IMG/VR virus record: IMGVR_UViG_3300044769_000253
Span: 15,549-79,548 of that record
Direction: 5' to 3' (one strand)
DNA from: a virus
DNA: 64,000 bases
Positions 5,224 to 34,408 of the stretch are shown here, one piece after another. Position numbers and translations under genes: made by a program. The first letter of the stretch is position 1, and each line of letters opens with the position of its first letter. The notes below the pieces were generated by a model, which did no database searches, had not been told where the DNA came from, and worked only from the letters and a program-made list of their open reading frames with translations.

Positions 5224-6443
5224 ACAACCCCGCCCTAAAGGGCGAAGCTTTGCAGATCGAGTCCATGGCTCACAACCACTTCAACCCCGTCCACGATAGG
5301 CCCGTTTACGCGAGCCCTGGATGCGATGTTGCGGGCGCCGACATGATCGGCGTGGTCCGCAAAGCCGCACCCGGTGCAGACGAATTCGGATTGCGTCTTC
5401 CGATTCGCCTTGTCCATACAACCGCACTCTGGACATGTTCTACTGGTGTTGCGTGGGTCCACCGCTACCAGCGCGACGCCAGAGAGTTTCGCCTTGTAGC
5501 TGAGGAATGCGCGCAGTTGGAAGAACGACCAGCCATGCAGATGTGCTCGCTGGGCCCTACGAACCGTTACCCGTTCGCGGATGTGCGTCAGGTCTTCCAA
5601 CGCGATACCGCGGCCGGTGTCTCTGGCCTTGCGAACAATCGACTTGCTGATGACGTGATTTGTATGTGCGTGGAAACGCTGCTCTCTCCTTCGGAGCTTG
5701 CGCAGGTGGCGCTTGGCACTCTTGGTGCCGGTGGACTGAAGACCGGAACGCAGCTTGGCGATTCGGCTTCGTGCGACGAGCGTGGCATCACCCGAGTGCA
5801 TCTCACCATCCGAATCGACGGCGAGGTTTCGGATCCCGAGGTCAACCCCGAGCCAGCCCTCGGGATCGATGGGCGAGCCATCGGGGACTTCGATGGTCAC
5901 GAACAGGAAGAGCTTGCCCTTGCGGTAGACAAGATCTGCTTGCCCGCGCACGCCTGCGAGGCGAGCCAGGTGGTAAGCGCCGATGGCGCACGGCACGACG
6001 ATGCGACCGTCCAACGCGAGCAGGCTCACGCGGTCGAGGCCGTTCTTGAAAGTGTAGATACGCTGATCGTAGGCAATGGCGCCGTGCTCACGGAACCTCG
6101 GGAGCTTCGACCGGTCGCGACGGTAGACCTCGCAGACCTTCGAGATGGCGCGGACCGTGTGCTGCGACGAGAGCCCGAAGCGGTCGCGCAGCTCGTGGTA
6201 GTAGAGCTTCTGCAAGCGCAACTTATCGGCACTCTGCAGCGCGAACGCGCGCTCTGCGAGCCAGGTACATGCCTCGTTGACCCGAACCATCGTTGCCAGG
6301 AGCCGTGCCTTTTGGGCGGCATCGACGAGCAACTTGACGGTCGCGATGAGCTTCATTGGCATAGGCATAGCACGGCTAAGCAATATGGCAACCGGAAGGG
6401 CCGGTTCCTCACCGCCCTGAAGGACGGGGCTTCCCCGGCTCTG
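5220..6443 (-). mobile_element. IS200/IS605-family solo-TnpB element (IS1341-like, no tnpA)
   Basis: Subterminal hairpins on minus strand: left GAAGCCCCGTCCTTCAGGGCGGTGAGG (about 6406-6432), right GCTTCGCCCTTTAGGGCGGGGTTGTTTAC (5220-5248). Removing 5220-6443 restores an in-frame TAG at 6463-6465, 1 nt before the SNF2 start. Confidence 0.8.
5235..6383 (-). CDS. tnpB: TnpB RNA-guided endonuclease with intact RuvC
   Basis: LGVDLG (RuvC-I), IALEDL (RuvC-II), CPECG/CTGCG Zn finger, HADHVGARNI (RuvC-III); start may be ATG 6356. Confidence 0.95.
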   Translation of the reverse strand: MLSRAMPMPMKLIATVKLLVDAAQKARLLATMVRVNEACTWLAERAFALQSADKLRLQKLYYHELRDRFGLSSQHTVRAISKVCEVYRRDRSKLPRFREHGAIAYDQRIYTFKNGLDRVSLLALDGRIVVPCAIGAYHLARLAGVRGQADLVYRKGKLFLFVTIEVPDGSPIDPEGWLGVDLGIRNLAVDSDGEMHSGDATLVARSRIAKLRSGLQSTGTKSAKRHLRKLRRREQRFHAHTNHVISKSIVRKARDTGRGIALEDLTHIRERVTVRRAQRAHLHGWSFFQLRAFLSYKAKLSGVALVAVDPRNTSRTCPECGCMDKANRKTQSEFVCTGCGFADHADHVGARNIASRARVNGPIVDGVEVVVSHGLDLQSFAL

Positions 6444-6466: not shown

Positions 6467-8215
6467 GTGAAGACGTTCGGCAAAGTGTCGTTCCGCGGCG
6501 ACAAGTGGCTGATAGACGTGGAGCCGCACGTGCGCCTGCGAGCGAAGCGCGTCTTCGGTCAGCTCGCATCGCACGCGCAGAAGTGCGTGGCCATCAGCGA
6601 CACGATTGAAAATGCCCGCGACCTCTCGTGGTTTCTCGAGCGCTATCCGGTGGAGATGAGCGCAGCAGATCGCGGCCGACTCGATGAGCGTGCGACCGCC
6701 CACGTCGAGCGTGAATCTCTGGTCGACCAACTGATGAAGGGGATCGCAACCCCTCGCTCGTTCAAGCTCGCCATCGAGCCTCGTGACTACCAGCGCGTGG
6801 CCGCCGAGTGCGCCTTGCGGATGCGCGGCTTGCTGCTCGCGGACGATGTGGGCTTGGGCAAGACAGCCGTCGGTATCAGCCTGCTGACCGAGAGCGATGC
6901 ACGGCCGGGTCTCGTGGTGACGTTGACGCACCTGACGCGGCAGTGGGAGCGTGAGATCGAGAAGTTCGCGCCGGGTCTGAACGTGCACGTCCTGAAAAAA
7001 GGAACTCCGTACGACCTGACGGCCCGGCCGCGCACGCGAGGGAAACAGCTGTCGTTACCCGGGAGCTTCCCCGACGTGATCGTGACCTCGTACAGCAAGA
7101 TTCGTGGATGGGCTGAGACTCTCGCGCCCATCGTGCGTTCTGTGGTGTGGGACGAAGTGCAGGAGTTGCGCCGAGGCGAGCAGTCTCAGAAGGGCGAAGC
7201 GGCGACGGAGATCGCCGATGCTACCGAGTATCGGTGTGGGCTCTCGGCGACACCAATCTACAATTACGGCGGGGAAATCTGGAACATCTACCGTTTCATC
7301 AGCCCGAATGCTCTTGGAACTCAGCAAGAGTTCATGACCGAGCACTGCAATGGGCAGGACTCGCGAGGCAACGCGAGCCTGAAGGATCCGAAAGCGTTCG
7401 GATCGTACCTGCGCGCCGCGGGGCTGATGCTGCGACGCACCCGCAAGGATGTGGGTCGCGAACTGCCCGAGGTGATCCGAATCCCGCACACGATCGACAT
7501 GGACGATCGTCCATTGAAAGAGATCGAACGCGCCGCCGAGAAACTCGCTCACGTAATCCTGCTGAAGCAGGAGGAATCGCGGGGCGAGAAGATGCGGGCC
7601 AGCGAGGAATTGAGCGGACTCGTGCGTCACGCAACGGGAGTAGGAAAGGCGCCGTACGTTGCCGAGTTCGTTAGAATTCTTGTCGAGAATGGCGAGCCGG
7701 TGATCCTGTACGGATGGCACCGTAGCGTCTACGACATCTGGTTAGAGCGGCTCAAAGACTTGCACCCGGCGATGTACACGGGCAGCGAGTCAGCGGCAGC
7801 GAAGGACACGAGCGCTCAACGGTTCCTGAATGGCGAAACGGACGTCATGATCTTGAGCCTGCGCGCCGGAGCCGGGCTCGAGGGCCTCCAGCGTCGTGGG
7901 CGAACGCTTGTGTTCGGAGAACTCGACTGGAGTCCTGGAGTCATGGACCAGTGCGTCGGGCGTAAGCATCGGGACGGCCTCGATGGATCGCTGGCGGTTT
8001 ACTACCTGCTCGCCGACGAGGGTTCCGATCCGATCATGGCGGACGTGCTGCAAATCAAGCGGTCGCAGAGCGAAGGCCTGCGGAATCCGACGCTCGACCT
8101 GATCGAAAAGCTGGACGTCAGCGGCGAACGCATCCGCGACTTGGCGCGGAGCTATCTCAGCAAGCGCCCACGCTCGCATGCGTCGGCGTCGGCGGGGGAG
8201 GTGGTCAATGCCTGA
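6467..8215 (+). CDS. SNF2-family helicase/ATPase
   Basis: LLADDVGLGKT, VVWDEVQ, LSATPIYN, MLRRTRKDV, AGAGLEGLQ, ELDWSPG. Confidence 0.9.
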   Translation: MKTFGKVSFRGDKWLIDVEPHVRLRAKRVFGQLASHAQKCVAISDTIENARDLSWFLERYPVEMSAADRGRLDERATAHVERESLVDQLMKGIATPRSFKLAIEPRDYQRVAAECALRMRGLLLADDVGLGKTAVGISLLTESDARPGLVVTLTHLTRQWEREIEKFAPGLNVHVLKKGTPYDLTARPRTRGKQLSLPGSFPDVIVTSYSKIRGWAETLAPIVRSVVWDEVQELRRGEQSQKGEAATEIADATEYRCGLSATPIYNYGGEIWNIYRFISPNALGTQQEFMTEHCNGQDSRGNASLKDPKAFGSYLRAAGLMLRRTRKDVGRELPEVIRIPHTIDMDDRPLKEIERAAEKLAHVILLKQEESRGEKMRASEELSGLVRHATGVGKAPYVAEFVRILVENGEPVILYGWHRSVYDIWLERLKDLHPAMYTGSESAAAKDTSAQRFLNGETDVMILSLRAGAGLEGLQRRGRTLVFGELDWSPGVMDQCVGRKHRDGLDGSLAVYYLLADEGSDPIMADVLQIKRSQSEGLRNPTLDLIEKLDVSGERIRDLARSYLSKRPRSHASASAGEVVNA

Positions 8216-8510
8216 TTACACACAGAATCTAGGTGATCGCAGAGAGTTGGAGTTTTTCGAAGCGATCGAGCGGGTTATCGCGGCCAGCCGCTATCGGCTC
8301 GATCCGCCTGGTGCGTTGTTGCGCCTGACTGACGTCGAGGCGGGCGACCTCGGGCTGAACGACCCAGCACGCGCCCACGTCCTACTGGTCGCTGCTCTCG
8401 GCGTGATCGACGGCTGCGCGCGTCGATGGGGAGAGAGCTCGGCCGAGCGGGACGAGTTTCTTCGCATCTGCGGAGCGGCCTTCGACAAGGCGCGAGGGTC
8501 CAATGCCTGA
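8208..8510 (+). CDS. hypothetical protein containing a 17-aa copy of a head-region protein segment
   Basis: ATG 8208; PPGALLRLTDVEAGDLG identical to ORF 33881-34408. Confidence 0.5.
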   Translation: MPDYTQNLGDRRELEFFEAIERVIAASRYRLDPPGALLRLTDVEAGDLGLNDPARAHVLLVAALGVIDGCARRWGESSAERDEFLRICGAAFDKARGSNA

Positions 8511-12137: not shown

Positions 12138-12313
12138 CCGCCCCACGACTCACCGAGGCCGAGCTGGCGGAGCTGCAGTCTGCGGTTGAGCTGCTCTGCA
12201 AGCCGCTGAACATGCTGGAGCGGATGGAGCGAGACCTCATGGTGGCGAACCAACGGATAGCGGAGCTGGAGCGGCAACTGGCCGAGTGCCGAGCGAGGAG
12301 TGACACCAGGTGA
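12134..12313 (+). CDS. small coiled-coil protein
   Basis: ATG 12134 to TGA 12313, overlapping both neighbours. Confidence 0.45.
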   Translation: MTAPRLTEAELAELQSAVELLCKPLNMLERMERDLMVANQRIAELERQLAECRARSDTR

Positions 12314-14951: not shown

Positions 14952-15609
14952 AGAACTTGCACGACTCACCGAGGCCGAACTGGCGGAGCTCGAGCGCTTG
15001 CTCCAGCACGATGGCAGCCATCGAATCCTGCTCCCGGTGCTGCTTGCTCGCGCCCCCCGCCTCATCGCCGCCGCCCGGCTGGCCAATGAGCAGACTGCGG
15101 AAGCGTGCGAGAATCTCCAGCTGGCAACCGACCTATCCGAGAGTCTATCCGAGGCGCAAGCCACGATCGAATGTTTGGGCAAGAGGGCTCAAATGATCAT
15201 GTCCGGCGAGTCACTGCGCCTGCTCGTAACTGGCTCGCGCGATTGGACAGACCGTCGCCTGTTGGAGTCTGCACTCGATGGCATCGTCCAATGGCTCTTC
15301 ACCGACGTCGTGCCCATCGTGGTGCACGGTGCGTGTGAAACAGGCGCGGACGCGATGGCGGACGAGTGGGCGCGCAGTCGAGGCTATTGGCGTGAGCCGC
15401 ATCCGGTTGTACGAGAACATGGTCCGTGGCCGGCGGCTGGTCCACGCCGCAACCGCGAGATGGTCGAAGCTGGCGCGCGCGTGTGCGCGGCGTTCCGTCT
15501 GCACGGAGAGCCCAACAAGGGCACCACCGACTGCTTCAAGCAGGCCATTCGCGCCTGCATAGCAACGCTGGTTGTAACCATGCTCATCCGGTTGTCTCCC
15601 AACGGGTAA
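14938..15609 (+). CDS. SLOG/DUF2493-family protein; last codons read into the IS1595 left end
   Basis: LLVTGSRDW, VVHGAC.TGAD, AGPRRN.EMV, KGT.DC. Confidence 0.72.
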   Translation: METPEELARLTEAELAELERLLQHDGSHRILLPVLLARAPRLIAAARLANEQTAEACENLQLATDLSESLSEAQATIECLGKRAQMIMSGESLRLLVTGSRDWTDRRLLESALDGIVQWLFTDVVPIVVHGACETGADAMADEWARSRGYWREPHPVVREHGPWPAAGPRRNREMVEAGARVCAAFRLHGEPNKGTTDCFKQAIRACIATLVVTMLIRLSPNG

Positions 15610-16128: not shown

Positions 16129-16179
16129 GCGGTGCGCGGCTGGGCCCTGGTTCGCCGGGGCCCACTGCGAGGTAACACC

Positions 16180-17241
16180 ATGAGCCCCGCCCAAACGCAC
16201 GACGTGCACCGCGGGGCCTTGCCCTTACCGCGATCGCTGCCCGAATTCCAGCGCCTGTTTCCCGACGACGCGGCGTGCGGCGCGTACCTTGAGCGGTGCC
16301 GCTGGCCCGAGCTGTTTCGCTGCCCCGCGTGCGGCGTGGGCGGCGACCCGTTTCGCTTCGCGGCTCGCCCTGGCGTGCTGCGTTGCCGGGCCTGCCGCAA
16401 GGACACGAGCCTCACGGCGGGCACCATCATGCACCGCACGCACAACCCGCTCAGCACGTGGTTCTGGGCCGCCTACCTGGTGAGCACGCAGACGCCGGGC
16501 ATGTCGGCCACGCAGTTCGCGCGGCAGCTGGGCCTGACCCGCTACGAGACGGCGTTTCAGATCTTGCACAAGCTCAGGGCCGCCATGATCCGGCCGAACG
16601 TGGATCGCATCGGCGGCGAAAACGTGGTGGTCGAGCTGGACGAATCGCTGGTCGGAGGCGCCACCCGAGGCGAGGGGCGAGGCGTCCACCACAAAGTGTA
16701 CCTTGCCGGCGCTGTGGAGAGCCTCCAGCGCGCTCCGGCCGCGGACGGTGGCAAGCTGGCCAAGAGCAAGCTCCGACGCAATGGCACCTACGCCGGGCGC
16801 CTGCGATTGCGTGTCCTGCCCGACCGCACGGCGCCGGGCCTGCTCGGGTTCGCTCGCGAGTCGATTGCTCAGGGCTCGTTCGTCCGCACGGATGACTTCC
16901 CGGGGTACGCGCAGCTCGATCTGGAGTGCGGCGTGCGCCATTCGCCCGTGGCCGAGCGCGGCGACCCTGCCGTAGCCGAGGCGCACCTGCCGCTGATTCA
17001 CCTGGTTTTCTCGAATTTCAAAGCTTGGTTGCAGGGGACTCATCACAGCGTTTCTCCGAAGCATTTGCAGGCGTATGCCAACGAGTACGTGTTCAGATTC
17101 AATCGCCGGTTCTATCCGTTCAACGGATTCCGATCTTTGCTGGGGCTCGCCGCGACGCAGGAGTCGATGACGTACGACGGTCTGTATTCCGACGAGTGCG
17201 TACATCCTGTCGCGGTCGGACCGTGGGAGTTAACCGGATGA
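16180..17241 (+). CDS. IS1595-family DDE transposase with N-terminal Zn ribbon
   Basis: CPACG...CRACR; VELDESLVGG; VRTDD..GY; HLQAYANEYVFRFNRR; stop lies in the right TIR. Confidence 0.92.
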   Translation: MSPAQTHDVHRGALPLPRSLPEFQRLFPDDAACGAYLERCRWPELFRCPACGVGGDPFRFAARPGVLRCRACRKDTSLTAGTIMHRTHNPLSTWFWAAYLVSTQTPGMSATQFARQLGLTRYETAFQILHKLRAAMIRPNVDRIGGENVVVELDESLVGGATRGEGRGVHHKVYLAGAVESLQRAPAADGGKLAKSKLRRNGTYAGRLRLRVLPDRTAPGLLGFARESIAQGSFVRTDDFPGYAQLDLECGVRHSPVAERGDPAVAEAHLPLIHLVFSNFKAWLQGTHHSVSPKHLQAYANEYVFRFNRRFYPFNGFRSLLGLAATQESMTYDGLYSDECVHPVAVGPWELTG

Positions 17242-17511: not shown

Positions 17512-18030
17512 ATGATCGAAATCGACACCGAGAAGGTGGAGATAGAGGCGGTTACGCCGATTGTGCCGAGGGACGATCGAACGCTGCGTCTCGTCATCTC
17601 AAAGCGGCCCGACGAAAGGATGTGCGTGGAACACCAACTCGTGGTTGACCCGCACGCCCGGACCGTCTCGTGTGAGCGCTGCAAAGCCGCGCTCGATCCT
17701 TTCGATGCCATCTGGGAAATTGCCAAGCGACACGAGCGACAGTTTGCGTGGACCAAACACCGTCTGAAGGAGCTGAATGCGCTTGAAGCGCGAGTCGACG
17801 ATCTGAAACGACGCGAAACACTGGCGCGCGCCCGCCTTCGGCGGGCTGGCGGCGAAGTGCCTCAGAAGCACGAGCAGGACGAGCAGCTCGGCGGAACGCT
17901 GCGCGCGCGGATCGAAGACGGAAGGATCCGCGTGCACTTCGACAAGCGATGGACCGCAGAACAGGCGCGCGAAGGCGGAGCCGAGCTCGTGCTACTGGCG
18001 ATGAAGCTCGAAGCGGGAAGGGCCAAGTGA
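17512..18030 (+). CDS. hypothetical protein with CxxC and coiled coil
   Basis: VSCERC...LDPFDA; coupled to neighbours. Confidence 0.55.
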   Translation: MIEIDTEKVEIEAVTPIVPRDDRTLRLVISKRPDERMCVEHQLVVDPHARTVSCERCKAALDPFDAIWEIAKRHERQFAWTKHRLKELNALEARVDDLKRRETLARARLRRAGGEVPQKHEQDEQLGGTLRARIEDGRIRVHFDKRWTAEQAREGGAELVLLAMKLEAGRAK

Positions 18031-18267: not shown

Positions 18268-19449
18268 ATGAACGAGCGACATCCCGAGGCGTTGCCATGG
18301 ATCTTTGCGCGCTCTGATTCATCAGAGATGCTGACCGTTTGGGAGCGAAGTGGTTTCGATGCATGCCAGCGCGCACCGAGGGCGTTCTTCGAGGAGAACG
18401 GCGTGCGCGAGGACAACCCACGACTGGTGGTGAACCCCTGCCTGGAGCTTTCAAAGGCAAAAGAGATTGCGCTGAAGCTCGAGACAATGCCGCGATGCGT
18501 CTGGACCTCCGAGCCTGGAGAGCACAACAAAGAGGCGCTTCAACTCGAGTCAGCGCAGGAGGAGGAACACCTCGAAGGGCGAATTGCAGACCTGAACGAT
18601 GGCGATGCGAAGCGACTCGAACTCGCCATGATGGAAGCATCGACCAAAATGGCCCAGCGCGTGTCCATCGACATGGCAACAGCGATGGGACTCCTCGAGA
18701 GGATTTCGCAGCTGGAGCAGTACCGCGACGAAAGGATCGAGGATTGCTTGCGGCTGAGCGCGGAGGTCGAAGCGGCACGAAAGCTGATTTCTGAACTGCG
18801 CATCGGGTGGCTGGACGGGATCGATCAGAACGGAGAGAGACACCCGCCGAGCTCAGTGGAGCACAGATTGCGCGCATGTTTCGAGCGCGAACCGGACCGC
18901 AGCAACGTAGAATCGAAACGGGAAGCAAGGCCTGAGTGGCGACTCCAAGCCAGACCTGGTCAGCTCGCTCCGAGCGGGGATTGGACTGTGTGGCTGATTG
19001 CCAAGGATCGTGGTTGGGGAAAGACGAGGGCTGCATCCGAGTGGATCCGCGAGCGTGTCAACGCGGGCGCGCGAAATATCGCCCTGGTTGGACCGACGCC
19101 CGAGTTCGTCGAAATGATGGTGGAACAGCTGCTGGACTGTTGCCCTCAGACGGAGGCGAGTTACTCGCCCGGCAAGCGGCGGGTGACGTTTGCGAACGGT
19201 GCAATCGCGACGACGTACTCTGCGGAAGAGCCCGATCAGCTTCGAGGTCCGCAGCACGACACCGCGTGGTGTGACGAGCCGGCGAAGTGGCGCTATCCCG
19301 AAGCGTGGGACCAGCTCATGTTCGGACTGCGCCTTGGTTTCCCACTCAAGAACGGTGGCGAGTCGAGCGAGCGCCCTCGCTGCGTCGTGACCAAGAAGCT
19401 TGAATTGATCGATCTGATCCATCGGGATTGGGAGTATGTCGTCACATGA
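18268..19449 (+). CDS. fusion of an unknown helical domain to a truncated terminase-large-subunit ATPase domain
   Basis: From about 18937: RGWGKTR (Walker A), AWCDEPAKW (Walker B); 53 aa identical to TerL; no nuclease domain. Confidence 0.78.
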   Translation: MNERHPEALPWIFARSDSSEMLTVWERSGFDACQRAPRAFFEENGVREDNPRLVVNPCLELSKAKEIALKLETMPRCVWTSEPGEHNKEALQLESAQEEEHLEGRIADLNDGDAKRLELAMMEASTKMAQRVSIDMATAMGLLERISQLEQYRDERIEDCLRLSAEVEAARKLISELRIGWLDGIDQNGERHPPSSVEHRLRACFEREPDRSNVESKREARPEWRLQARPGQLAPSGDWTVWLIAKDRGWGKTRAASEWIRERVNAGARNIALVGPTPEFVEMMVEQLLDCCPQTEASYSPGKRRVTFANGAIATTYSAEEPDQLRGPQHDTAWCDEPAKWRYPEAWDQLMFGLRLGFPLKNGGESSERPRCVVTKKLELIDLIHRDWEYVVT

Positions 19450-19700: not shown

Positions 19701-19746
19701 AGATTCAGCCTTGACGAGAGGTTGCACCAGCAGAAAGAGAAGAAGC

Positions 19747-20991
19747 ATGGAGTACGAAAAGCGAAAATATCAGGAGACTGCAATCGCGGAGGTGCACGTG
19801 AGCATCGCCGCGGGCAAGCGCGCTCCCTGCCTGGTCATGCCGATCGGCAGTGGTAAGACGTACGTTGCGGCTCGCATCGCCAGTAGCGGACGCATTCTGT
19901 GGGTGGCTCCATCACAGGAGCTAGTGCAGCAGGCTGCAGAGGTGACGGTTGGAATGTACGGGATCGACGCCGTCAGCGTGATGATGCCGGGCGGACACTA
20001 CCGCCCGCACGCACGGATCCAGGTTGCAACCGTTGGAACGCTATTGGCGCGTGGGCTGCCAGAGAACGTAGACAAGCTCATACTGGACGAATGCCATCAC
20101 ATGCCGGCCGATGTGTGGCGCAGCATCCCTGACGAGTACAAGAGCTGTTCGCGCATCGGCCTGACTGCGACGCCTGAGCGCTCAGACGGCAAACCGCTCG
20201 GCGACATCTTCGACCATCTGATTGTCGGTGCGCGACGGCAAGACCTCGTCGAGCAGGGCATTCTCGTGCCGTGGGTGATCTACCAATCAGAGCGGCACAT
20301 GGGTCATGATTACGCTGTCGATCCTCTGGCCGCATGGAGGGAGCTGACGAAGCTACTTCCAGACCCGCGGACATTCGCCTACTTTCGGGACGTGTCGGAG
20401 GCCGAGGCTTGGGCGCGCGCGTTTGAGCAAGCTGGCATTCCGTCGGCGTGTATCAGCTGCATGACACCGGACGGGGACAGGACCCAGATCCTGGACGGGT
20501 TGCGACGACGAAACGACTGCCGGCAGATCGATGTGGTGACAAACGTGGGCACGATGGGAGAGGGTGTCGACGTGCCGCCAGTCAGCTGCGTTATCCTGGC
20601 GAGCCAATTCCGCTTTGGTGGCAGGTACGTGCAAGCCTGCGGGCGCGCGGGGCGTTGTTCGCCAGGTAAGGAGTTCGCGCTGCTAATCGACCCAATCGGA
20701 TCGAGTCGGCGACACGGCAACCCCAACGACGATTGGGAGTACTCCCTCGAAGGTCGCGATGGTATGCGCAGAATTCAGATCGTGAATGGACCGAAGGGCG
20801 GGAACGGGCCGCGGGAACGAAGCACGCCGGTGACGGCGGACAATGCCCTCATCCTTTCGGACGCCACTGACTACACCGGTGCCGGCGCTGAGAAGTTCGT
20901 GCGCCGGTATCTGGCGCAGCCCAACGCGCAGCGGCTGGCGAAGGCACAGAGTCGCATCGCGCACACCCTAGCCGGAGGAATGGCGGAATGA
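19747..20991 (+). CDS. SF2 DEAD/DEAH-box helicase (ResIII/UvsW-like)
   Basis: MPIGSGKT, LDECHH, GLTATPER, EGVDVP, QACGRAGR. Confidence 0.85.
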   Translation: MEYEKRKYQETAIAEVHVSIAAGKRAPCLVMPIGSGKTYVAARIASSGRILWVAPSQELVQQAAEVTVGMYGIDAVSVMMPGGHYRPHARIQVATVGTLLARGLPENVDKLILDECHHMPADVWRSIPDEYKSCSRIGLTATPERSDGKPLGDIFDHLIVGARRQDLVEQGILVPWVIYQSERHMGHDYAVDPLAAWRELTKLLPDPRTFAYFRDVSEAEAWARAFEQAGIPSACISCMTPDGDRTQILDGLRRRNDCRQIDVVTNVGTMGEGVDVPPVSCVILASQFRFGGRYVQACGRAGRCSPGKEFALLIDPIGSSRRHGNPNDDWEYSLEGRDGMRRIQIVNGPKGGNGPRERSTPVTADNALILSDATDYTGAGAEKFVRRYLAQPNAQRLAKAQSRIAHTLAGGMAE

Positions 20992-23335: not shown

Positions 23336-23806
23336 GCTCCAATGGCATCGCGACGCCTACGAGATCGCGACTCGACACGTTGACCCGGGTGTCGGAGCGG
23401 ACCGGCGGCTCCAATGGCATCGCGACGCCTACGAGATCGCGACAGCGTGATGACGCCGCCGGCGATCGTCAGCGGCGTGCTCCAATGGCATCGCGACGCA
23501 TTGGAGATCGAGTCACGACGATCCACGGCGGCCTGCCATCAGGGCCTTCGTCGGCTCCAATGGCATCGCGACGCCTACGAGATCGCGACCCTGCGCTGGG
23601 CGCACCAACGAGCGCGACACGCCACGCTCCAATGGCATCGCGACGCCTACGAGATCGCGACAGCGAGGGTCGCTCGAGCAGCATCGAATCCAGGCGCTCG
23701 CTCCAATGGCATCGCGACGCCTACGAGATCGCGACGCGTGGATCTGGAAAAGGCGGCTCCCCTGAGGGATGCTCCAATGGCATCGCGACGCCTACGAGAT
23801 CGCGAC
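23336..23806 (+). CRISPR. CRISPR mini-array: 7 x 36-nt repeats, 6 spacers (36,35,39,36,38,35 nt)
   Basis: GCTCCAATGGCATCGCGACGCCTACGAGATCGCGAC at 23336, 23408, 23479 (5 mismatches), 23554, 23626, 23700, 23771; partial repeat end GAGATCGCGAC at 23815-23825; TCGCGA stem. Confidence 0.97.
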
Positions 23807-26209: not shown

Positions 26210-26279
26210 GGTCACAGGCCCCGGCGGGCCAGCCTGGTTCATGCCCAGGTGTTGCCTCGTTCAACTCGAGGGGGAAAGA
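26210..26279 (+). other. tRNA-like structure (anticodon CAT) without a paired acceptor stem
   Basis: Anticodon arm CCTGG-TTCATGC-CCAGG (26233-26249), 5-nt variable loop, T arm CCTCG-TTCAACT-CGAGG (26255-26271). Confidence 0.35.
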
Positions 26280-26287
26280 GAGACATC

Positions 26288-26941
26288 GTGGCAGCGCGAA
26301 AGGGTCGCCCCAAGGGGCCGTCCGAGATTGCGAGTGCTCCGCGCCGCCCGAATGCTCTGCCTTCGGCATCGCGAGCGGAAAGTACCATGAGCGCGCGCGC
26401 GCGTTCTTCTGTCGTCGAATTGAAGCAGACGCTCATCAACGAGCGCCTCAAGGACCCGGCGACCCAGCTCAAGATCGACCCTCGTTTGCCCAAGGGCAGG
26501 CCAGGGAAGCGCGAGCGGCTCGACTACATCATCGAGCTGATGGTTTCGAACCGCTGGGTCACCGGCATCACCGGCCCGATGCTCGCATCGATCTGGGGCC
26601 TCGCGAAGGTCACGGTCGATAAGGATGCCGCCGAGGCGTCGCGCCAGATCGGGTCGTTTTCGCGAGCGGACCGGGAGCAGCGCAAGGCGCTGTGGCTCGC
26701 AAATCTGGAGTCAGCGCGCGCGAAGGCCTACCGAGACTGTCGAATGGAATCGGTGAAGGGGCTTCTGGAACTCGAGGGCAAGGCGTTCGGTTTCTTCGAG
26801 CCTGAACGCCACTCCGTGGACGTCGAGGTTTCGAATGCAGCTGAGCTTGCCGAAAGGATCGGAGAGGTCGCCCGCCGAATGGCTGGCGAGTCTACCGGAA
26901 GCGCACCGAGCGAAGATCCTGACGGAGCTGAGCGACGCTGA
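26288..26941 (+). CDS. terS: terminase small subunit (putative)
   Basis: Directly upstream of and overlapping TerL; helical, C-terminal AAELAERI; start uncertain. Confidence 0.6.
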   Translation: MAARKGRPKGPSEIASAPRRPNALPSASRAESTMSARARSSVVELKQTLINERLKDPATQLKIDPRLPKGRPGKRERLDYIIELMVSNRWVTGITGPMLASIWGLAKVTVDKDAAEASRQIGSFSRADREQRKALWLANLESARAKAYRDCRMESVKGLLELEGKAFGFFEPERHSVDVEVSNAAELAERIGEVARRMAGESTGSAPSEDPDGAERR

Positions 26942-28241
26942 AGCGAAGAGCCTTCGGTGGAACTGGCGTTTCTGGGCACGACCGAAGCAGATTGCGCCGC
27001 CCGGCAAGTGGGTCATCTGGCTCATCATGGCGGGGAGAGGGTTCGGGAAAACTAGACTTGGCGCCGAGTGGATCCGCGAGCGCGTCAATTCGGGCAAGTC
27101 GCGACGCATCGCTCTGGTAGCCGAGACGGCAGCCGACGCTCGCGACGTGATGGTGGAAGGCGAGAGCGGATTGCTATCGTGCTTTCCGGCGTCGGAGCGG
27201 CCGATATACCAGCCAAGCAAGCGCCGTGTGACGTTCGCGAACGGAGCGATCGCGACGACGTACTCGGCGGAGGAGCCCGACCAGCTTCGAGGTCCGCAGC
27301 ACGACACGGCGTGGTGTGACGAGCCGGCGAAGTGGCGCTATCCCGAAGCGTGGGACCAGCTCATGTTCGGACTGCGCAGCGTCGAGACCGATCCGCGCTG
27401 CGTTGCGACGACCACGCCGAAGGCAGTCGAGCTGATTCTGCGTTTGGTCGCGCGCGCTGGTGACGACGTCGCACTGACCACGGGAACGACGTTCGAAAAC
27501 CGCGCCAACCTGGCGCAGGTCTTCATCAACGAGATCACCCGGCGCTACGCCGGCACGCACCTCGGCGAACAGGAGCTCGAGGGCAAGCTCATCGAGGATG
27601 CGAAGGGCGCGCTATGGCACCGGGGTTGGATCCGGCGTGTCGCGCGCGCACCGGCGATGAAGCGCATCGTGGTCGCTGTCGACCCGTCGGTTTCTGCGGA
27701 CACCGAAGGCGCGGCGACTGGCATCGTTGCCGCCGGCGTCGGTGTCGATGGTCGCGCCTACGTCCTGGCGGACGGGTCGCTCGACCAGCCCACTCCAGAC
27801 CAGTGGGCGAACGCGGTCGTCGCTCTATTCGAGGCCCAACAGGCCGATCGCATCGTCGTCGAGGTGAACCAAGGCGGCGACCTCGTTCGAGCAAACCTGC
27901 AGAGCGTCAAGAGGTTCCTGCCGATCACCGAGGTTCATGCGACGCGCGGAAAGGCCGTGCGCGCGGAGCCGATCGCGGCGCTGTACGAGCAAGGCCGGGT
28001 CTCGCATGTCGGCACGTTTGCTCTGCTCGAAGACGAGCTTTGCAAGTGGGAGCCGAACAGCGGCGCTCGCAGTCCGAACCGATTGGACGCGCTCGTCTGG
28101 GCAATGACGGAACTCTACCCCGAACTCACACTAGGCCCCGTCGAACTCAGCGCAGAGGATGCAGCGGTCCAAGACGAGTCGGTTTGGGGTCGCGAGCATA
28201 GCGTTTTCGGAGAAGACGGCGGCTCATTCTGGGGCAACTGA
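26835..28241 (+). CDS. terL: terminase large subunit
   Basis: AGRGFGKT, AWCDE, ATTTP, nuclease VVAVDPS, VEVNQGG, RAEP, SPNRLDALVWA. Confidence 0.95.
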   Translation: MQLSLPKGSERSPAEWLASLPEAHRAKILTELSDAEAKSLRWNWRFWARPKQIAPPGKWVIWLIMAGRGFGKTRLGAEWIRERVNSGKSRRIALVAETAADARDVMVEGESGLLSCFPASERPIYQPSKRRVTFANGAIATTYSAEEPDQLRGPQHDTAWCDEPAKWRYPEAWDQLMFGLRSVETDPRCVATTTPKAVELILRLVARAGDDVALTTGTTFENRANLAQVFINEITRRYAGTHLGEQELEGKLIEDAKGALWHRGWIRRVARAPAMKRIVVAVDPSVSADTEGAATGIVAAGVGVDGRAYVLADGSLDQPTPDQWANAVVALFEAQQADRIVVEVNQGGDLVRANLQSVKRFLPITEVHATRGKAVRAEPIAALYEQGRVSHVGTFALLEDELCKWEPNSGARSPNRLDALVWAMTELYPELTLGPVELSAEDAAVQDESVWGREHSVFGEDGGSFWGN

Positions 28242-32753: not shown

Positions 32754-33878
32754 ATGAACCCGATGCAAGAAGTGGTCAGGCAGCAGCGCACGCCCGAAGG
32801 TCGCGCGTACGACGCCTACATCAAGGCCATCCAGACGCTGGGCAACCGGCTCGGTCAACCGTCTTCAGGCGAACAGCTGGACGCAGAGCTGGTCGATCTG
32901 AAGCGCGAGAACGAGGCGATCTTGGCGATCAAAGACATCCGCCCGGGCGACGTCCACGTGAGCCAGGTGCTCCAGACGCTCTCGGTGATGTTCGCCAACG
33001 ACGAATTCATCGGCAATCGCTTGATGCCGGTGGTGTTCAACAGCGGAAAGCTGAGCGGCACCTTCTACAAATACGAGAAGCGCAACTCGCTCGGCTACCC
33101 GGACGACTCGATGGCCGACCGCACGACTCCGGCCGAGCTGAACCAGAGCCGCACGAAGGCCACCTTCTCTCTGACCATTCGGTCGCTGCGTGAGTTCTTG
33201 GATCAGTACGTGATCCAGAATCAGGATGCGCCCTTGAACGAACTCGTCGACCTGACGGCCAACGTGTTGAACGGCATGGCCTTCAACCGCGAGGTTCGCC
33301 ACGCGGCAGTCCTGTGCACAGCGGGCAACTTCGGCGCCAACACCGTGGCGGTCGCAGCGGGCGACCGCTGGGATACGGCCGGCGGCGGTGATCCGGGTGC
33401 GGTGATCGACACGGCGAAGGCCGCCGTGTGGAGCGGTCGTGGACCGGGTCGTTGGGCCGGCTACATGTCGCTTAACGTCTTCAACGTGCTCAAGCGGCAT
33501 CCACGCATCCTCGACACGTTCAAGTACGGTGTCGGGGCTGCCGGTCCGAGTCAGGCGAGTCTGCAGATGCTCGCCGAGTACTTCGACTTGGACGAGATCC
33601 TCGTCGGCCGCGCCCGCAAGGACACGGCGAACGAAGGTCAGACGGCGAGCTACTCGCGCATCTGGTCGGACGTGTTCGGCATCGCGCGTGTCGTCGCGCC
33701 CTCGCCGCGCAACGCCGGTTTCGGCTTCACCTTCCAGGACGCCCCGACGCAGTCGGACCTCTCGTACGAGCTGATGGACGGCGCCAAGGGCGGTTACTAC
33801 GCCCGCTCGACGCACGCCGACAACGAACTCGTGGTCGCCAGCGAGTGCGGCTACCTCGTCACCACGCCGATCGGCTGA
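32754..33878 (+). CDS. major capsid protein
   Basis: 374 aa, GGAG RBS, position after protease/decoration genes. Confidence 0.85.
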   Translation: MNPMQEVVRQQRTPEGRAYDAYIKAIQTLGNRLGQPSSGEQLDAELVDLKRENEAILAIKDIRPGDVHVSQVLQTLSVMFANDEFIGNRLMPVVFNSGKLSGTFYKYEKRNSLGYPDDSMADRTTPAELNQSRTKATFSLTIRSLREFLDQYVIQNQDAPLNELVDLTANVLNGMAFNREVRHAAVLCTAGNFGANTVAVAAGDRWDTAGGGDPGAVIDTAKAAVWSGRGPGRWAGYMSLNVFNVLKRHPRILDTFKYGVGAAGPSQASLQMLAEYFDLDEILVGRARKDTANEGQTASYSRIWSDVFGIARVVAPSPRNAGFGFTFQDAPTQSDLSYELMDGAKGGYYARSTHADNELVVASECGYLVTTPIG

Positions 33879-33880
33879 TC

Positions 33881-34408
33881 ATGGCTGACCAGAAGAACCA
33901 GGGTCAGGCGCCCGTCCAGGCGGGCGCTGCCAACCAGGGTCCGCCGAAGGACGCAGCGCCGCCGAAGCACACCGAAGCGCAGATCCAAGCTGCGCTTCGG
34001 TCGGCGCGCGCAGCCGGCGCTGGCAAGCTCGACGAACTCGAGGCCGTGCTCCGCTCCGGCGGGGACCTGGCCAAGGTCGCAGAGCAGATCGCTGCCACCC
34101 GAGAACGGAACCTCGCCGACTACCACGTGCGTGGTCCTGGCTCGGTCTCGCTCAATGGCGCGCTCCATCCGCCGGGTGCGTTGCTGCGCCTGACCGACGT
34201 CGAGGCTGGCGACCTCGGCGACGCTGTCGCTCCGGGCAAGCCCAAACGGAGATTCGAGCGCAAGCAGCGACCTGCCGGTCGCTACAAGCTGCTTGGGCCA
34301 GGAAACGTGTGGTTCGACGGGCGTCTGCATGTGCCGGGGTCGGTGCTGCAGCTGAGCCAGGCGGACGCGCGCGACATCCCGACCGACCTCGAACTGCTCG
34401 AGGGCTGA
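33881..34408 (+). CDS. hypothetical head-region protein with two internal repeats
   Basis: Y.V.GPG.V..NG.L..PG..L.L repeated twice. Confidence 0.6.
   Translation: MADQKNQGQAPVQAGAANQGPPKDAAPPKHTEAQIQAALRSARAAGAGKLDELEAVLRSGGDLAKVAEQIAATRERNLADYHVRGPGSVSLNGALHPPGALLRLTDVEAGDLGDAVAPGKPKRRFERKQRPAGRYKLLGPGNVWFDGRLHVPGSVLQLSQADARDIPTDLELLEG

Follow-up and report, generated by a model that had tools for sequence, protein, structure and literature searches.

Several proteins of prophages and satellites are known to target the terminase. TerI, an early-region prophage protein of 65 aa from the Listeria phage phi10403S, blocks packaging by binding terminase; it is conserved across phages of Listeria and comes with dedicated partners for self-immunity. 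The TerI paper cites SaPI Ppi, RppA, and PLE Gpi as further terminase-targeting proteins of prophages or satellites, and it describes none of the four as being derived from TerL. The Avs1-3 defence proteins are sensors of TerL, and the anti-Avs proteins found in a literature search, ORF55 (a ligase) and ORF83 (a DprA/Smf-like protein), are unrelated in kind to the gene described here. A precedent of another sort is ectopic gene conversion between dispersed paralogs, which leaves sharp tracts of near-identity in an older divergence, on the most conserved segment.

The gene considered here is a chimera from a provirus, found in a window (the whole 64-kb stretch of DNA that was analysed) covering bases 15549-79548 of the 90.8-kb IMG/VR provirus record IMGVR_UViG_3300044769_000253. 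It shares with TerI a location in the early lytic module of a temperate phage and, by analogy, could plausibly act on the packaging machine; unlike TerI, it is a singleton. Like T4-type TerL (gp17 structures 2O0H, 3CPE, and 3EZK; P74-26 structure 4ZNI), it is predicted by AF2 to adopt the ASCE ATPase core fold, and its Q motif, Walker A GKT, LRGP arginine, and Walker B CDE are retained. It departs from T4-type TerL in that a foreign N-terminus of 210 aa stands in place of the first 32 residues, and in that the C motif, the lid helices, the nuclease domain, and the last strand of the core are all missing. Its tract of near-identity with the resident terL resembles those left by conversion between dispersed paralogs, and it differs from the usual case in that the recipient would be a truncated chimera within one phage genome, in direct orientation and 8 kb from the donor.

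The explanation favored here, to which a probability of about 0.55 is assigned, is that the chimera unites an early gene with an old, fast-evolved, partial terL paralog carrying conversion patches, that it is probably translated, and that any function it may have is non-catalytic. The sequence comparisons show that an early-region gene, consisting of a rare N-terminal module of 70 aa and a helical stretch, is joined in frame to a partial paralog equivalent to TerL residues 33-203, and that ectopic recombination (gene conversion) has overwritten two portions of the diverged copy with terL sequence; translation and a non-catalytic role are inferred.

Table 1. Positions, in the window, of the chimeric gene, its parts and motifs, its neighbors, and the resident terL
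Feature	Position	Strand	Remarks
TnpB (OrfB_IS605 + Cas12f1-like TNB)	5235-6383	-	Further upstream
IS1595-family transposase (DDE_Tnp_IS1595 + Zn ribbon)	16132-17241		1 kb upstream of the chimera
phrog_1621-matching gene	17512-18030	+	Same co-directional block as the chimera
Upstream ORF, 79 aa	18027-18266	+	GTG overlaps the stop of gene 17512-18030 (GTGA)
Chimeric gene, 393 aa	18268-19449	+	N-terminal module, helical stretch, and truncated TerL ATPase core
N-terminal module, aa 1-72	18268-18483	+	Rare early-phage protein family
Long alpha-helical, coiled-coil-like stretch, aa 86-183	18523-18816	+	AF2 model
TerL-homologous region (TerL aa 33-203)	18901-19425	+	BLASTP, alignments, AF2 fold
Walker A GKT, aa 251-253	19018-19026	+	Kept
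Second patch, EWIRERVN, 24 nt	19039-19062	+	22/24 nt shared with terL 27066-27089
Near-identical tract, 160 nt; conversion patch	19173-19332	+	Compared with terL 27218-27377
Putative arginine finger LRGP, aa 325-328	19240-19251	+	Kept
Walker B CDE, aa 335-337	19270-19278	+	Kept
27-nt (9-codon) block without counterpart in resident terL	19333-19359	+	Sharp 3' edge of the tract
Degenerate C motif TKK	19390-19398	+	TTT to TKK
Downstream Cys-rich ORF, 84 aa	19446-19700	+	ATG overlaps the chimera stop (ATGA); GC3 0.78
SF2 helicase (ResIII/Helicase_C)	19711-20991	+	Block directly downstream
Cas12-like protein gene, 753 aa	20988-23249	+	PADLOC Cas12u1/Cas12f models
Repeat array, seven 36-nt direct repeats and six spacers	about 23336 to 23806		Downstream of the Cas12-like gene
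Resident full-length terL, 468 aa	26835-28241	+	Terminase_6N + Terminase_6C; own tract at 27218-27377

Gene structure and operon setting

The limits that the first-pass annotation had given for the gene are right: it opens with an ATG at 18268, preceded 9 nt upstream by a GGAGG Shine-Dalgarno sequence, and closes with a TGA ending at 19449. The ORF shows a coding-type pattern of GC1, GC2, and GC3 in a genome of 64% GC. Its placement in the early or accessory region was likewise borne out, as the gene sits within a co-directional block of early genes, and no plus-strand terminator was found between 15.4 and 24.6 kb. The stop codon of the 79-aa ORF lies a single nucleotide before the chimera's start (TGAaATG), and the chimera's own stop is overlapped by the start of the next gene. 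The chimera is probably translated within this tightly packed early operon, because the ORF is intact, a Shine-Dalgarno sequence is present, and translational coupling to both neighbors is indicated. No family match was found for the 79-aa ORF, and PHROGs returned nothing for it or for the 84-aa ORF.

Downstream lie the helicase gene, the Cas12-like gene, and the repeat array. The six spacers of the array match neither terL nor the tract, nor anything elsewhere in the 90.8-kb record. A search of IMG/VR for the unit of helicase, Cas12m-like protein, and CRISPR array yielded one distant helicase locus and no Cas12m relatives. As for the upstream side, the early region is rich in mobile DNA, including the IS1595 transposase and TnpB genes.

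The part of the chimera ahead of the TerL-like region had been described as an unrelated N-terminal domain, and it is indeed unrelated both to TerL and to the putative TerS. The possibility that it represents a diverged TerS was considered and rejected, as it shows no similarity to the putative terS product encoded at 26249-26941. An exhaustive HMMER search of 1.84 billion representative proteins recovered only two relatives of the N-terminal module: P0006, of 288 aa, which is 61% identical to the chimera over aa 3-72, and P0007, of 97 aa, which is 49% identical to the module. In other phages, the genes for both lie ahead of the terminase genes, within early or replication regions, and the two proteins have unrelated C-termini. 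The idea that joining this module to a captured piece of a late gene is a habit of the family was dropped, as neither P0006 nor P0007 has a C-terminus with a match in its own locus. In the ESM Atlas, nothing above chance level was found for the N-terminal part of the chimera. The stretch that follows the module is modeled by AF2 as helices at residues 86-108, 111-131, and 136-183, with pLDDT values of about 70-84, and a search of protein collections for homologs of aa 86-183 found none.

A check proposed with the first-pass annotation was a search for homologous fusions. None was found among 5.8 billion clusters, 1.84 billion representatives, IMG/VR, GTDB genomes, and JGI metagenomes, nor was a second TerL fragment found in 105 related viral loci. 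The chimera is thus a one-off, lineage-specific gene in a prophage early-gene operon.

The TerL-like region

Residues 212-386 of the chimera align with residues 33-203 of the resident TerL at 60% identity (BLASTP, E 6e-63). At the nucleotide level, self-BLASTN pairs 19012-19332 with 27040-27377 at E 3e-70, and the match between chimera and terL is therefore not due to chance. AF2 models residues ~212-386 with pLDDT values of 84-97, and the modeled core matches the TerL ATPase structures of T4 gp17, P74-26, Sf6, D6E, and HK97. Family profiles recognize the region partially: Terminase_6N of Pfam scores 26.8 bits (cutoff 22) over residues 248-345, covering only profile positions 6-112 of 215, and PHROG 2 matches at E 4.8e-5.

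The motifs were placed with a profile of 20 TerL homologs aligned to T4-family gp17 across the Walker A, Walker B, and TTT coupling motifs. The Q motif (RPGQ) is kept, as are the Walker motifs. The arginine of LRGP lies 11 residues before the Walker B glutamate and is taken here to be the arginine finger, by the spacing of R139 and E150 in P74-26; the structure matches include PDB 4ZNJ, which is the R139A mutant of P74-26 TerL. The C motif is degenerate, with TKK standing at the site of TTT 192-194 of the resident TerL, and this site aligns with the TTT of gp17 chain 3ezk_A (residues 161-292). Moreover, the copy stops at the equivalent of TerL residue ~203, and beyond this point the model of the resident TerL continues with a core strand (212-217), three lid helices (220-247), and the nuclease domain. 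The region had been introduced as a copy of the terminase ATPase domain, and this holds in part: it is a copy of TerL 33-203, without strand 212-217 and helices 220-247, amounting to about two thirds of the domain. The reported absence of the nuclease domain stands without qualification, with no Pfam match to Terminase_6C and no tblastn remnant in the window or the 90.8-kb record; similarly, no further TerL pieces or decayed nuclease domain were found downstream, in other frames, in the window, or in the whole record. Having lost the C motif, lid, and nuclease along with the last core strand, the copy cannot be a packaging motor.

What is left has stayed open: the gene is an unbroken frame of 393 codons, about 190 of them TerL-like and highly diverged, and all five indels relative to TerL are in frame. 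Column conservation was taken from 103 TerLs, the resident TerL included. At columns conserved in at least 90% of these proteins, the copy keeps 18 of 28 residues before the tract and 22 of 22 inside it; the 18 of 28 compare with 26 of 65 at the other columns (Fisher p = 0.04). The copy's GC3 is among the lowest of the genes checked, at 0.70 overall and 0.66 before the tract.

The near-identical tract

Codon-by-codon comparison reproduced the central claim of the first-pass annotation, i.e., that the tract agrees with terL at 151 of 160 nt, that its nine differences (G/C, G/T, T/C, T/A, A/G, T/G, A/G, T/C, and C/G) are all synonymous third-position changes, and that the 53 encoded residues (KRRVTFANG...MFGLR) are identical. 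The last 69 nt (19264-19332) show zero differences, as had been noted. All nine differences thus fall in the 5' 90 nt (P = 0.016 by chance); dS is 0.55 in these 90 nt and 0 in the 3' 69 nt, and dN is 0 throughout. This uneven divergence fits two events, or one event followed by a later swap of part of terL. The second, 24-nt patch differs from terL at two positions, both synonymous, and other TerLs read EWVRxxV there. A diversity-generating retroelement was rejected as the source of the tract, as the differences are not confined to adenines of one copy.

The copy had been described as more diverged on the Walker A side, and the residue counts agree: copy and resident TerL are identical at 44 of 93 residues (47%) before the tract, at 53 of 53 inside it, and at 9 of 24 after it. 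This contrast was compared with 5,253 pairs of TerL homologs. Among pairs with 45-50% identity before the tract, the tract itself averages 58% identity with a maximum of 92%, and none attains 95% or more; no pair in the set matches the contrast seen in the copy. In a tree built without the tract, the copy's end branch measures 2.63 substitutions per site, against a median of 0.18. The unmatched contrast, the flanks at 47%, and the long branch together identify the tract as a gene-conversion patch on an old, fast-evolved partial paralog.

A tree that places the copy and the resident TerL together lies 33 lnL units above the free quick-search tree (p-AU 0.91), although this sister placement may itself stem from the patches. 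A foreign donor for the pre-tract part was considered and set aside. A search for close relatives of that part found none, as no protein among 5.8 billion clusters had enough words in common with it to be scored, and the copy and the resident TerL are not separated in the tree. Judged by its sequence, the copy seems to be a long-standing paralog of the terL of its own lineage and not a recent import. The earlier suggestion of a recent capture from a related phage therefore survives in part: recombination with a related terL fits the mosaic, while the copy itself looks old and native to its own lineage.

The patches center on the most conserved motifs, with the arginine finger and Walker B in one case and the helix after Walker A in the other. 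Either the resident terL, which lies 8 kb downstream, or one of its sibling alleles served as donor. How many conversion events there were, in which direction, and when, is read from one pairwise comparison in one genome. Five of the nine tract differences are A/T in the copy and G/C in terL, with one in the reverse direction, and the copy has the lower GC3 (0.70 against 0.78). The A/T bias, agreeing with the lower GC3, hints that most of the changes occurred on the copy's side.

If the copy had drifted neutrally since patching, the chance that nine of nine changes would be synonymous is about 3e-4 to 8e-4. A dS of 0.55 with a dN of 0 is therefore unlikely under neutrality and points either to selection on the copy or to a donor other than today's terL. 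On the one hand, it is possible that purifying selection acts on the 53-aa segment in the copy too. On the other hand, it is possible that the differences arose between two working terL alleles, whether because the terL of a sibling phage was the patch donor or because a sibling allele later took the place of the 5' part of the resident terL. Selection on the copy and a working-allele donor account equally well for the synonymous-only pattern, which by itself does not prove such selection.

A TerL gene elsewhere carries an intein at a site that corresponds to one in the tract. The TerL of a related Beijerinckia mobilis prophage (L109:9962-11977, scaffold NZ_JQJH01000016.1) is interrupted, between the W and C of the Walker B sequence AWCDE, by an intein of about 272 aa (CWIGG...VHN|CDE). 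In the window, the corresponding position is 6 nt into the 69-nt identical block. Intein homing as the source of the tract is a weak idea, because inteins and conversion both favor the most conserved motif and an intein at the W|CDE site was seen in 1 of about 119 TerL loci examined.

Remnant, artefact, or working protein

A chance in-frame join of a partial terL duplicate, left open by luck and refreshed by conversion without acquiring any role, is a credible possibility, though a somewhat doubtful one. Such a non-functional remnant would agree with the singleton status of the gene, for which the collections searched hold no homologous fusion, with the loss of the C motif and of 10 of the 28 conserved TerL residues, with the very long branch and the low GC3, and with surroundings rich in mobile DNA (the IS1595 transposase at 16132-17241 and TnpB at 5235-6383). 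It sits less easily with a frame kept open across so many diverged codons, with indels that all preserve that frame, with start and stop junctions coupled to both neighbors, with the preferential retention of TerL-conserved columns (p = 0.04), and with synonymous changes at 11 of 11 differences across the two patches. Were the chimera only a remnant, it would still be a clear case from nature of ectopic gene conversion acting in patches within one phage genome, and it would illustrate that synonymous-only differences between two copies do not prove selection on both. That the tract was instead produced during assembly, by mis-threading through a repeat, is hardly credible. The record is a provirus contig, and an exact repeat of 69 nt can confuse short k-mer graphs; however, both flanks of the tract are diverged yet colinear TerL-like sequence in the same frame, and the 5' 91 nt, because they contain nine differences, are not a shared graph node. 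Moreover, a path swap at the 69-mer would truncate the real terL, which is full length and colinear with its homologs.

If the chimera does have a function, the favored account, a patched old paralog in an early operon, would have it act without catalysis, by binding through its TerL-like surfaces; it might, for instance, poison or regulate TerL rings as one of their subunits. The more specific proposal that an early, non-motor TerL core co-assembles with TerL as a dominant-negative or regulatory subunit and delays or blocks packaging is unlikely, and so, to the same degree, is its extension that the target is the phage's own TerL or that of related superinfecting phages, reached through the arginine-finger and Walker B interface of the ring. 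The motif content would suit such a role, the chimera retaining the Walker A GKT, arginine finger, and Walker B but not the coupling motif, lid, or nuclease; the 53 aa bearing the interface are identical to those of the resident TerL; the helical stretch, as modeled, could oligomerise; and TerI provides a described case of a prophage early-region packaging blocker that binds terminase. Against this, the chimera is a singleton, the phage's own terminase would be poisoned unless the effect were counteracted, and the known terminase blockers (TerI, Ppi, and Gpi) are not described as TerL-derived. The dominant-negative packaging inhibitor put forward in the first-pass annotation found no support, and the collections searched contain no homologous fusion. 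A functional chimera would add to the few, scarcely described accessory proteins derived from TerL; it would be the first of them to retain its ATP-site motifs while matching the resident motor in sequence, and the regulation or sabotage of terminase assembly by phages and prophages would become directly testable.

A decoy for the terminase-sensing Avs/STAND defence proteins, also put forward at first, fared no better and is very improbable. Its appeal lies in the sensing of TerL by Avs1-3 and in the gene's early-region location. Avs sensors are switched on by binding their target, TerL, which means that a TerL mimic made early should activate them instead of blunting them. Furthermore, the chimera has no PADLOC match, the described anti-Avs proteins are a DNA ligase and a DprA/Smf-like protein and are unrelated to TerL, the gene is a singleton with no homologous fusion in the collections searched, and it covers no more than about two thirds of the ATPase domain. 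A broader conjecture combines several of these elements. It is rather improbable that the chimera is a selected early TerL mimic whose arginine-finger and Walker B face is kept self-matched by selection together with recurrent conversion. It seems just as improbable that such a mimic docks on TerL rings or on host TerL sensors and serves as a packaging brake, a means of superinfection exclusion, or an anti-sensor. There is a similarly small chance that the early-region patch at 8297-8353, which resembles 34162-34218, is another case of the same strategy.

Other repeats in the record and related contigs

That patch is a second instance of late-gene sequence within an early ORF. Positions 8297-8353 and 34162-34218 are 91% identical over 57 nt and share 18 of 19 encoded residues, reading L[D/H]PPGALLRLTDVEAGDLG. 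The early member lies in a 110-aa ORF (8178-8510) that follows an SNF2 helicase gene. The late member lies in a 187-aa ORF (33845-34408) located directly after the major head gene, and this ORF also contains a second, diverged copy of the patch motif. Because flanking homology is absent, the similarity is not the product of simple homologous conversion. Elsewhere in the early region, an intergenic direct repeat of 31 nt occurs at 12144-12174 and 14960-14990 with 97% identity.

Finally, among the related viral sequences, two TerL matches (L092 and L093) come from one 51-kb viral contig, IMGVR_UViG_3300031259_000021, where they lie near both ends. This doubling probably reflects a terminally redundant or concatemeric assembly.
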